A stretch of DNA of 64,000 nucleotides from Nitrosopumilus sp. (GTDB lineage: Archaea > Thermoproteota > Nitrososphaeria > Nitrososphaerales > Nitrosopumilaceae): positions 160,001-224,000 of the forward strand of contig CBDBLO010000002.1 in NCBI GenBank assembly GCA_965207075.1, read 5' to 3'. The first letter of the stretch is position 1, and each line of letters opens with the position of its first letter. A program made the position numbers and the translations under genes. A model generated the notes under the pieces. It saw nothing but the letters and a program-made list of their open reading frames with translations. It was not told where the DNA came from and ran no database searches. This document shows, piece by piece, positions 13,215 to 24,559 of the stretch.

Positions 13215-13291
13215 TGGTGGGACCGGCAGGATTTGAACCTGCGACCACTAGCCCCCCAGACTAGTATCATACCAAGCTAGACGACGATCCC
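13215..13291 (-). tRNA. tRNA-Pro(GGG), intronless, 3' CCA encoded
   Basis: Minus strand GGGATCG...CGGTCCC-ACCA acceptor stem, anticodon arm CTAGT-CTGGGGG-GCTAG, T arm GCAGGTTCAAATCCTGC. Confidence 0.95.
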
Positions 13292-21773: not shown

Positions 21774-22448
21774 CTACGGGTTAAAGCGCTGATTGGTGGC
21801 GGCCGACGGCGACGCTGCCATGGTAGACACGTCCTGCGTCTGGGTCGGCACCGAGGGGAACATCTGTCCTGTCGAGGTCCCCGCTATGGCGGCGGCTTCC
21901 TTTAGTATCTCGTCTGTCTCCGCACTGGTCACCGAGTCCGTCCCAAACGCTGCGTCTCCTGCAAAGCTCTCCGTCATTAACCCGTCGAGCATCTCGGCCA
22001 TCTGCGTCAGCTCCTGTTCTGCCCCCGGCATGACCTTGCCCAGGGACGACTTTATGTTCTTCATCAGGGCTACCGTCGGCATTATAGTGACTACCGTGTC
22101 CCCGAGGTCGCTGCACGTGGTAAGGCGCAGCTCGATACGCTCCAGTGCGGTCCTGGCCCCACCCAGCACCTTTGTAACCTTGCGTATCTCGGCCAGTTCG
22201 TTGCCGAGGATCTTGCTGGTCTGCTGATCGTTCTTCTGTACGGCGTCAACGACCCTCTGGAACAGCGCGGCATCCCGCTTCTGCAAGCTTCCAAGCATAG
22301 AGTCCAGTTTCCTGATCTGCGGCTTTAGCATCTTTGTCGCGTCCCGTATGCGGGGCTTGAGCGGGCCCTTGGGCCTGACGACGGATCCTATCCTTTCGGA
22401 TATGGTTGGCGTCTCCTGCCTCGACCAGGTCTTCTGGAAGTTTGCCAT
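21774..22448 (-). CDS. ESCRT-III/Snf7 (CdvB-family) protein
   Basis: PLKPRI..A, RDAALFQRVV, LGNELAEIRK, ALERIELRLTT..DLGD pattern of archaeal CdvB paralogues. Confidence 0.85.
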   Translation of the reverse strand: MANFQKTWSRQETPTISERIGSVVRPKGPLKPRIRDATKMLKPQIRKLDSMLGSLQKRDAALFQRVVDAVQKNDQQTSKILGNELAEIRKVTKVLGGARTALERIELRLTTCSDLGDTVVTIMPTVALMKNIKSSLGKVMPGAEQELTQMAEMLDGLMTESFAGDAAFGTDSVTSAETDEILKEAAAIAGTSTGQMFPSVPTQTQDVSTMAASPSAATNQRFNP

Positions 22449-22506
22449 TGACCCCCATCTCAAAGTTAGTATTTAACCCTGTACGGGCGGCGGCCGGTGC
22501 AGGGCC

Positions 22507-23046
22507 GTGCCGGCGATGCAGAATTCGTCAAGGCCAATCGGCAGGCTTTTACCTCCGGGCGCCGGATACCGCGCAGCCTTGAGCCGCGCAAAGACTGCAC
22601 TTGTCGTGATAGTGGTGCTGCTGGCGGCAGGCCTGATTGTGGGGGCGCTCGTACCGGAGGGGGGGACGGAGCCCGGCATCGGCGCGCCCCGGGGCGACGG
22701 GGACGAGGTCTTTCACGTCAGGCTGGCAGAGCCCGGCATGTACTCGGGCGGCGTGTACACCGACTCGTTTGAGGCGCCCGGCGGCCAGTACGCGTTTGAC
22801 TTTGTGCCCAACGGGAGCAGCCCCGAGATCCTCTCCATTACGCTGGAGGGCGGCGGCGGTCCCGAGTACCGCGAGGACTTTGTGCTGGAGGGAACCAAGC
22901 ACGAGGCGCTTCTCGGGGAGTACTATACGTGGGAGTATCTGGGACAAAAGCACGTAGCCATACAGGACGGCGGCACGGTCTCCATTACGATAGACCCTCA
23001 CGGTGACACACTGGGCTCCGTGTCCGTATACCTGTATGAGAATTAA
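22507..23046 (+). CDS. hypothetical membrane-anchored exported protein
   Basis: Hydrophobic N-terminal segment, beta-rich body (FVPNGSSP); start uncertain. Confidence 0.7.
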   Translation: MPAMQNSSRPIGRLLPPGAGYRAALSRAKTALVVIVVLLAAGLIVGALVPEGGTEPGIGAPRGDGDEVFHVRLAEPGMYSGGVYTDSFEAPGGQYAFDFVPNGSSPEILSITLEGGGGPEYREDFVLEGTKHEALLGEYYTWEYLGQKHVAIQDGGTVSITIDPHGDTLGSVSVYLYEN

Positions 23047-23050
23047 GATA

Positions 23051-23181
23051 AGGGGTGGCGCAACCCCTCTGCTACAGAACAATGAGAGATTTCCTCTCCG
23101 TTCGGGAAACCAAGTCCCTTGGCCATTTCGTTCTGCGGGGTTACGCGCCGTCAGTCGATAGAACTTGCATCCATCGGCATC
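23051..23181 (-). ncRNA. candidate structured non-coding RNA (~130 nt)
   Basis: Nested complementary stems of 10 bp and 9 bp, two inner hairpins, K-turn-like 5' hairpin, and an archaeal TATA box (TTAAATA, 23203-23209) about 22 nt upstream; ends are approximate. Confidence 0.6.
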
Positions 23182-23468
23182 AATCTAACTAGTAAATCTG
23201 GGTATTTAACATTTTTTCCACCATCTCATATTCTCTGGGGCTGTTTTTAGAAAAAATTGCATCATTCCTGCAGGCATGCCAACGCGCCGGCAGGGACGGA
23301 TCTCAGGGGCCTGAATGAGGCCGTTCATCCCCCTGGCGCGCCACGCGCGAATTCCGGAACTCCGACGCCCGCCAAGACGGATCTGGGCGGCCGGCCTGAA
23401 AGGGGTGCGGAACGGCCGCGCCCGGGCCTGCGAGGTCCCCGCACTCCGACATTTATTACGGCAGGGCC

Positions 23469-23687
23469 ATGCCAAGTCGCATGATGAACAGAAAGGCAAA
23501 GGCCAAGCTGATCATACTCTTGGGAATCATATGGGTAATCATAACCCTGCCGCTGCCCTGGATCGTAAACAACCCGGAGGTCTCCGAGTCACAGTTCAAT
23601 ACCATACTTGGCATCGTGGGCGTCATGTCGATACCGTTCGTCGTCCTGGGCGTGGTCTGGACGCTAAAGCCGGAGCTGACGACATGA
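23469..23687 (+). CDS. small two-TM membrane protein
   Basis: Two hydrophobic helices, ATGA overlap with cysQ; start may be 23481 or 23484. Confidence 0.7.
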   Translation: MPSRMMNRKAKAKLIILLGIIWVIITLPLPWIVNNPEVSESQFNTILGIVGVMSIPFVVLGVVWTLKPELTT

Positions 23688-24559
23688 GCCGGCCTGTGCT
23701 GGCGCCGGATCCACCGCCGATAAAAGATGCGGCCCCGGAGCTCGGCGCCGCGCTCGAGGCAGTGGCCAGTGCGGGCGCCGCGGTCCTCGACATATACCGC
23801 AAGAACGCCGGCGGCTCCGAGGAGAAGGAGGACGGCTCGCCTGTCACGGAGGCCGATCTTGCAAGCCACAGAATACTGACAGAGCTGCTGTCAAAGACGG
23901 GACACGCCATACTGTCCGAAGAAGGCGCGGACCGGTGGATCCTGCGCGCGGACAGAACGGGATCAGAGACGGTGTGGATAGTGGATCCACTCGACGGCAC
24001 GTCCGACTTTATAGACAGGACCGGCGAGTTTACCATAATGGCGGCGCTCATAAAAGAAAAGAGGCCCGTGCTGGGGGTCATACTGCGGCCCACCGACAAC
24101 ACCATATTTGTCGCGCAGAAAGGCCGGGGCGCGCTCTGCCATGACGCGGAGGGCTGGAGGAGGATCGCAGTGACGGGCACGTCCGCGCTGTCCGAGTGCA
24201 GGATGGTCGGCTCAAGGCACCACCTCACGGACCAAGAGAGGGGGTTCATAGCCGGGCTCGGGGTAAAGGAGTTTGTGAGCATAGGAAGCTCCCTCAAGGT
24301 CGGGATGATAAGCTCCGGCCGGGCCGAGGCGTACATTACGACCACCGACAGGATAAAGGAGTGGGACACGGCCGCGTCGTACTGCATCATAACGGAGGCC
24401 GGCGGAAGGATGACCGACGTGCGCGGGCGCGACCTCACGTACAACAACGAGGACATCCACCACAGGCACGGTGTCTTGGCCACGAACGGCGCCGTGCACG
24501 GGCGCATAGTCAGCGAGTTTGCGCTGTACTCAGATCAGGCCGCGGCCGCGGAGAAATGA
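23684..24559 (+). CDS. cysQ: 3'(2'),5'-bisphosphate nucleotidase
   Basis: KEDGSPVTEAD, ILSEE, VDPLDGTSDF, GSSLK, EWDTAA. Confidence 0.9.
   Translation: MSRPVLAPDPPPIKDAAPELGAALEAVASAGAAVLDIYRKNAGGSEEKEDGSPVTEADLASHRILTELLSKTGHAILSEEGADRWILRADRTGSETVWIVDPLDGTSDFIDRTGEFTIMAALIKEKRPVLGVILRPTDNTIFVAQKGRGALCHDAEGWRRIAVTGTSALSECRMVGSRHHLTDQERGFIAGLGVKEFVSIGSSLKVGMISSGRAEAYITTTDRIKEWDTAASYCIITEAGGRMTDVRGRDLTYNNEDIHHRHGVLATNGAVHGRIVSEFALYSDQAAAAEK

Follow-up and report, generated by a model that had tools for sequence, protein, structure and literature searches.

A 64-kb window of Nitrosopumilus sp. DNA (GCA_965207075.1, contig CBDBLO010000002.1, positions 160,001 to 224,000 of the forward strand), whose own numbering is used below, was found to carry on its minus strand, at about 23180-23045, the gene for a structured RNA. 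By every test applied here this RNA is a new class, and it is restricted to the archaeal family Nitrosopumilaceae, in which it is near-universal. The predicted minus-strand RNA is probably about 135 nt long, its 3' end being placed by a T-rich stretch. With somewhat less than even confidence, we favour the reading that it is a family-specific RNA in which a leaderless nine-codon mini-gene is fused to a folded, probably pseudoknotted domain, and that it would engage ribosomes. The parts of the gene are as follows.

23203-23217, minus strand: promoter, with an A-rich BRE-like stretch (23217-23211) followed by the TATA box TTAAATA (23209-23203).
23151-23180, minus strand: mini-ORF at the predicted 5' end, with the AUG at 23180-23178, eight more sense codons and the stop codon UGA at 23153-23151.
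23154-23178, minus strand: P0, the 5' hairpin overlapping the mini-ORF, in which 23178-23170 pairs with 23162-23154.
23147-23150, minus strand: CGGC, the linker that joins the stop codon to P1, variable among relatives.
23137-23146, minus strand: 5' strand of P1, GCGUAACCCC, supported by covariation and pairing with 23067-23058.
23130-23136, minus strand: 5' strand of P2, GCAGAAC, pairing with 23080-23074.
23119-23129, minus strand: J1, the purine-rich junction and 5' strand of the proposed pseudoknot (UGGC in the window), as judged from tests of J1/tail pairing.
23104-23118, minus strand: HA, a hairpin of the three-way junction with variable sequence and length, supported by covariation.
23084-23098, minus strand: HB, the near-invariant hairpin GAGAG-GAAAU-CUCUC, supported by covariation, with the first G and the last U of its loop kept.
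23074-23080, minus strand: 3' strand of P2, GUUCUGU, supported by covariation.
23068-23073, minus strand: 6-nt bulge on the 3' strand in the interval between P2 and P1, identified from the alignment.
23058-23067, minus strand: 3' strand of P1, GGGGUUGCGC, supported by covariation.
23041-23057, minus strand: 3' tail, containing a T-rich stretch at which transcription probably ends and the putative pseudoknot partner GCCA (overlapping the end of P1).

The original prediction, made from the letters of the window, had described a stand-alone and highly structured RNA preceded by its own promoter. Its stems and TATA box are all present in the sequence on the minus strand, at the coordinates it gave. 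The 10-bp stem that it had drawn between 23146-23137 and 23067-23058 is P1; the nested stem of 23136-23128 with 23082-23074 is present as well, the conserved core of P2 being 7 bp, with two extra pairs, up to 23128, in the window's genome; and both junction hairpins, GGGA..UCCC and GAGAG-GAAAU-CUCUC, can be read as proposed. What it had missed is that the 5' hairpin appears to double as a nine-codon frame, and that the 3' tail probably pairs with the junction.

Folding of the window sequence alone was modestly better than that of shuffled sequences (z = -2.08; 5 of 200 shuffles as good). Comparison among 72 distinct homologues gave 94.2% of cells paired, with compensatory changes at 23 of the 34 pairs, the changes that the original prediction had suggested be sought. 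As controls, none of 500 shuffles reached the observed level of pairing, and partners slid along the sequence paired at 36-50%, which sets the core far beyond chance. The alignment used was fitted to the model and therefore favours the structure, but the compensatory exchanges remain plain in the raw rows. By helix, compensatory changes were found at 7 of 8 pairs of P0 (83% of cells paired), at 4 of the 9 modelled pairs of the 10-bp P1 (98%), at 5 of 7 pairs of P2 (99.6%), at all 5 pairs of HA and at 2 of 5 pairs of HB. The comparison thus supports a predicted fold composed of P0, P1, P2 and a three-way junction with the variable hairpin HA and the near-invariant hairpin HB. Conserved bases are found in helices and junctions rather than in loops left open for pairing with targets, which favours recognition by protein or ribosome over antisense pairing.

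No described RNA family accounts for this fold. Comparison of the whole window with Rfam 15 (4227 families) at the gathering cut-off gave tRNA-Pro as the sole match and none at the RNA locus; this was the check that the original prediction had proposed, and its claim of novelty stood. A permissive Rfam scan of 22900-23600 gave a ybhL leader (E 2.8; positions 23271-23343) and a group II intron domain 5 (E 2.9), both at chance level and far under their gathering cut-offs. The tRNA and tmRNA test of the window by ARAGORN returned only the tRNA-Pro at 13215-13291, and no CCA-type end was found 3' of P1. The tRNA-Pro gene (anticodon GGG, minus strand) was the only match to Rfam or ARAGORN in the 64 kb, and a TATA-like box ends 23-24 nt upstream of its 5' end. 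RNase P RNA, SRP RNA and 5S rRNA were rejected as identities, all three being found elsewhere in the window's genome (G000) with scores above the cut-offs.

The two major archaeal guide RNA classes were also considered. A box C/D RNA carries a box C (RUGAUGA), a box D (CUGA) and guide regions; among the leaders compared CUGA was present in 4 of 69, and C/D families were absent from the Rfam results at the RNA locus, both at the gathering score and at E <= 10. In an H/ACA RNA the pseudouridylation pocket is two-sided and the basal stem is followed by an ACA box. Here the bulge between P1 and P2 is one-sided, and the basal stem is followed by a C and a U-run. The view of the original prediction that the RNA is neither tRNA, 5S, SRP, RNase P, C/D nor H/ACA was thereby upheld. 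No description of the RNA class was found by full-text searches of the literature; beyond these searches, the supplementary start-site tables for Thaumarchaeota contigs in PMC5069720 (Tables S2 and S4-S6) may list its start site.

One part of the original prediction was the drawing of the 5' hairpin as a K-turn, from which an L7Ae-bound RNA was proposed. In the window's genome, and there alone, GCCG-AUG-GA can be placed opposite CUGA-CGGC, so that GCCG (23178-23175) and CGGC (23150-23147) form a C-stem enclosing a 3-nt bulge and tandem G.A pairs. This C-stem is made from the G of the AUG and the three bases after it, paired with the four linker bases before P1, and no part of the RNA varies more than this linker. 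Of 69 distinct leaders, only that of the window formed all four pairs, and 2 formed at least three of the four; the stem, the 3-nt bulge and the tandem G.A occurred together in the window only. Most copies have UAA as the triplet within the supposed D box, and others have UGA or UAG. The K-turn arrangement competes, moreover, with P0, which is supported by covariation, and neither a C/D nor any other K-turn family was matched in Rfam. Judged from the leaders compared, the K-turn portion of the drawn fold is a chance resemblance, and the idea of L7Ae binding falls with a motif found in one homologue of 69; a K-turn RNA bound by L7Ae, or a C/D-like RNA, is the least credible of the readings weighed here. 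The conformational switch once suggested for the 3' end, in which AGGGGU would pair with ACCCCU to the exclusion of P1, fared no better: the tail needed for it occurs in the window's genome only, and energy evaluation put the P1 fold ahead of the alternative hairpin by about 16 kcal/mol, the hand-written P0 pairs used in this evaluation being imperfect but identical in both structures. For the family, K-turn and 3' switch were both rejected.

The distribution of the RNA was examined at several levels. By DNA search, copies about 70-75% identical across 23215-23062 of the window were detected in genomes of the same genus. The first covariance model, built on 27 copies, matched 22 of 23 Nitrosopumilaceae genomes and none of the 127 genomes drawn from the order's 19 other families; the one family member that it missed has a divergent copy (37 bits) at the syntenic site. 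With the second model, built on 78 copies, matches were obtained in 146 of 151 sampled Nitrosopumilaceae genomes belonging to 23 of 24 genera, at 1-4 copies each, a tally that takes in three unpublished genomes (G221, G244 and G234) used there only. Applied to 36 genomes of 13 other families, the same model matched nothing, even at a threshold of E <= 0.5. For the genus g66, represented by three genomes (G188, G200 and G219) of 0.8-0.9 Mb that are 93-95% complete, no match to the RNA model was obtained under stricter filters. Named records containing a 17-letter core word of the RNA came from Nitrosopumilus, Nitrosarchaeum and other Nitrosopumilaceae, and the same word also matches unrelated bacterial genomes by chance. 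Virus-borne copies were rejected, as the RNA was found in none of the 25 viral contigs that contain the core word.

The window's own genome carries a single copy. Its GC content is 60%, compared with 36-45% for the RNA copies of relatives, and its copy scores 106 bits against about 150 for those of AT-rich relatives. Up to four paralogous copies per genome were observed elsewhere (for instance L054-L060, L181-L190 and L236-L237), and these fall into types with different mini-ORF peptides. The types are conserved across species, which suggests old duplications.

The relation of the RNA to its neighbours was also analysed. The 3' tail adjoins the stop codon (23046) of a convergent plus-strand gene at 22507-23046. 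The product of this gene is a 179-residue protein that is membrane-anchored, with a hydrophobic stretch at its N terminus and a conserved C-terminal portion of about 115 residues; it matched no Pfam family. RNA and gene meet 3' end to 3' end in 44 of the 60 loci examined, two of which are the window itself. Like the RNA, the protein is restricted to Nitrosopumilaceae, being found in 22 of 23 genomes of this family against none of 127 from others. These two observations would be in line with a cis element controlling the convergent gene through read-through antisense transcription. Against this, secondary copies of the RNA adjoin unrelated genes; in two genomes (G074 and G172) the RNA and the gene stand about 11 and 96 kb apart; and another genome (G184) has the RNA and no match to the 179-residue protein. 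Such control of the neighbour is therefore regarded as very improbable, and an obligatory link between RNA and protein was rejected. A cis-regulatory leader or riboswitch was rejected as well, because primary copy and neighbour converge at those 44 loci and the neighbours of secondary copies are mixed, often convergent too. Since the neighbour is not always adjacent and the secondary copies lie by unrelated genes, the RNA is best described as a stand-alone gene and not a leader.

Other features of the surroundings were recorded. Upstream of the RNA lies an inositol monophosphatase gene (ORF 23315-24559), with its Pfam match starting from residue 144, and a GC-rich spacer of about 490 nt (23210-23700) separates the RNA promoter from the inositol monophosphatase domain. 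The spacer includes a 72-codon ORF of membrane-like appearance (23469-23687, starting MMNRKAKAKL) with no Pfam match. Beyond the 179-residue gene, a minus-strand ORF at 21774-22463 resembles Snf7 (CdvB-type), scoring 23.3 bits against a Pfam cut-off of 27.3; it is syntenic in 34 of 60 loci.

The TATA box TTAAATA is conserved in homologues, with a fixed gap of 22 nt to the AUG. To place this gap among those of other genes, a strict TATA motif was counted upstream of 1823 crude ORFs of the window's genome, and a peak was observed at 21-23 nt before the ATG, with 9, 5 and 7 matches at gaps of 21, 22 and 23 (21 in total) over a sparse background. This peak suggests that many genes are leaderless in the genome. 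The SRP, RNase P and 5S RNAs of this genome are preceded by TATA-like boxes as well, at a distance of 22-23 nt from the end of the box to the 5' end of the RNA. As the 22-nt gap matches both leaderless genes and stable RNAs, the 5' end was placed at the A of the AUG, and the transcript is predicted to begin at or beside this codon. The TATA box thus stands at the organism's usual distance from an AUG, as in a leaderless gene, and the claim of an own promoter is borne out by its conservation and by the spacing that it shares with the SRP, RNase P and 5S RNA genes.

Expression was sought for the locus of a relative (L008) in four runs, all of which consisted of contigs. A 174-nt metatranscriptome contig covers positions 1547-1720 of this locus, where the RNA model spans 1526-1670, the contig being one from which the strand cannot be read. 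This RNA-library contig extends 50 nt beyond the predicted end of the RNA, and from it transcript ends and level are likewise not readable. Two other runs carry the region on long, DNA-like contigs. The RNA is predicted to be independently transcribed.

We next consider the 5' segment, which in the window reads as a mini-ORF for the peptide MPMDASSID. A frame of nine codons (eight in one paralogue group) that opens with AUG and closes with a stop codon ending 3-5 nt before P1 was found in 70 of 72 distinct leaders, with the AUG at one and the same position of the model, and 28 of 30 further copies, including those of new genera, conform to this layout of AUG, frame and stop. In two conforming copies AUG and TATA box have moved together, the AUG by 5-6 nt in the 3' direction, and the 22-nt gap, the nine codons and a 3-nt spacer are all kept. 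In one copy (L186) the TATA box is closer, and the start would fall just before the third in-frame AUG, giving a frame of 7 codons. At the stop position only UAA, UAG and UGA occur, whereas the 3-5 nt that follow show free variation. In each of 15 sequence groups frame 0 stays open (in L132 from an in-frame UUG), and the other two frames mostly stop earlier; the product of the chance probabilities for an open frame is 10^-4.45, which is overstated because the groups are related. The frame also persists where the hairpin register differs or where the lower pairs of P0 are lost. As the frame is mostly inherited, few independent events underlie these counts. Taken together, the comparisons make it fairly probable that the mini-ORF is selected as a frame.

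The peptide itself behaves differently from the frame. The third position of a codon is frequently better conserved than the first, and as this is accounted for by pairing in P0, the peptide appears poorly constrained. Across genera a loose pattern can be followed (MPKDIIPID, MSKDIITID, MRKDVNPID), with synonymous changes between GAU and GAC and between AAA and AAG. This pattern, together with the layout of a leaderless gene, would agree with a small mRNA, of which the nine-residue peptide is the product and the folded domain a stabilising 3' untranslated region with terminator. The peptides of paralogues are, however, unrelated (MSLVTKSNE, MSKSLSAE and MLVQCRMMD, with MSLGIIDFK in another type), and near-invariant helices with a probable pseudoknot exceed the needs of a stabiliser, so that we consider a small mRNA improbable.

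A plain non-coding scaffold for a ribonucleoprotein is a more serious alternative. By this account the fold and the 5' hairpin would be the whole function and no ribosome would take part, the AUG representing a favoured start-site context and the stop-like triplet a part of an A-rich linker. Structure is indeed far better conserved than peptide, the third positions are constrained by pairing, and the promoter spacing is shared with SRP, RNase P and 5S RNAs. Moreover, one lineage (G094, GC 0.62) retains the fold with neither AUG nor stop, and one clade (L030, L132 and L184) is without the AUG and has an in-frame UUG only. On the other side, a scaffold would not require that the stop triplet be confined to the three stop codons next to freely varying bases, that an open frame of kept length be found in 15 sequence groups including those with different hairpin registers, or that an AUG displaced by 5-6 nt be accompanied by its TATA box. 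We consider a scaffold without ribosomes less likely than not.

The purine-rich J1 is complementary to U-rich bases 3' of P1, and a pseudoknot between the two was examined. As the alignment by the model shifts J1 among lineages, column-wise counts are of limited use (in alignment A1, four pseudoknot pairs, 84% paired, with one compensatory change), and a test of energy that needs no alignment was used. Each J1 with its own tail gave -6.93 kcal/mol, compared with -6.45 kcal/mol for cross-pairings, and 2 of 5000 permutations were as good, a result inflated by relatedness. Where J1 contains GG, the pair between the base preceding GG and the one following GCC is A:U in 46 combinations and U:A in 4; an A:A mismatch occupies this key position in one clade (three distinct combinations). 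In G094, the most divergent homologue, both strands differ and yet pair over 7 bp at -9.4 kcal/mol, with 13 of 2000 shuffles reaching this level. In the window itself the two strands can form only the 4-bp pairing UGGC:GCCA, which overlaps the end of P1. A pseudoknot of J1 with the 3' tail is likely in view of the permutations and of G094, with the A:A clade and the short pairing of the window speaking against it.

The preferred reading, of a leaderless mini-gene joined to a folded domain that engages ribosomes, may be put as a sequence of steps. A ribosome would bind the 5'-terminal AUG and open P0. On reaching the stop codon, it would melt the outer pairs of P1, and the 3' strand of P1 thus freed could lengthen the helix between J1 and the tail. 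Translation might in this way remodel the folded domain, or else a stabilised domain might detain the ribosome at the stop codon; the remodelling step is purely an inference. Against this reading stand G094 and the clade with UUG, the poorly constrained peptide, and the pairing of the AUG's G within P0, which would hinder initiation. The domain itself would most likely act by its shape, bound by protein or ribosome. A stronger form of the proposal is a stand-alone ribosome-coupled switch, with nine codons and a stop set against the pseudoknot, in which fold and binding of the domain follow initiation and termination. This form we consider unlikely, and were it true, it would be a switch without described archaeal counterpart and a possible functional analogue of the bacterial RNAs for ribosome sensing or ribosome rescue.

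Several known systems share single features with this RNA. SgrS/SgrT, RNAIII/delta-haemolysin and SR1/SR1P likewise combine a conserved fold and a short frame in one short transcript. SgrS, RNAIII and SR1 are bacterial, act by antisense pairing and encode peptides of at least 20 residues behind a ribosome-binding site, whereas in the archaeal RNA the frame has nine codons and starts from the 5' end, and no conserved open pairing seed was seen. The ermC, cat, cmlA and tnaC leaders carry a very short ORF overlapping a hairpin as well; there a ribosome within the ORF reshapes downstream pairing and thereby controls the downstream gene of the same transcript, while the archaeal RNA would end in a terminator and its next gene is usually convergent. 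Bacterial tmRNA (SsrA) resembles the probably pseudoknotted archaeal RNA in being a stable pseudoknotted RNA whose short frame runs for about ten codons to a stop codon, but the archaeal RNA is without tRNA-like domain or CCA end by ARAGORN, and its frame starts from the 5'-terminal AUG. Stimulators of frameshifting and read-through are pseudoknots that lie a few nucleotides downstream of the decoding site, and a stable helix with a putative pseudoknot is likewise located here 3-5 nt past the A-site codon. Unlike these recoding elements, the archaeal RNA has neither a slippery site nor a conserved frame past the stop, the latter because a linker of 3, 4 or 5 nt changes the frame. The K-turn RNAs of the C/D and H/ACA classes are archaeal, small and transcribed from their own promoters, and the window copy can be drawn with a K-turn-like motif; the present RNA differs in that the motif is not conserved and in that guide architecture, ACA box, two-sided pocket and Rfam match are all absent.

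Nitrosopumilaceae are among the most abundant microbes of the ocean, and to our knowledge almost nothing is known of RNA-based regulation in this family. Given that almost all sampled genomes of the family carry the RNA, frequently as several diverged copies, a central role is likely. A leaderless nine-codon frame with a probably pseudoknotted domain behind its stop offers a concrete hypothesis on the coupling of ribosome and RNA in archaea, which can be tested in cultured strains, and the covariance model would allow the RNA to be annotated in hundreds of genomes. A parallel by description is Tan1 of marine group II archaea, a structured orphan RNA of 229 nt whose function is given as unknown (PMC5069720). 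Tan1 differs in phylum and in length, and a mini-ORF is not reported for it in the portion of PMC5069720 covered here; the likeness, one of description only, is that both are lineage-specific, structured, stand-alone RNAs of abundant planktonic archaea.
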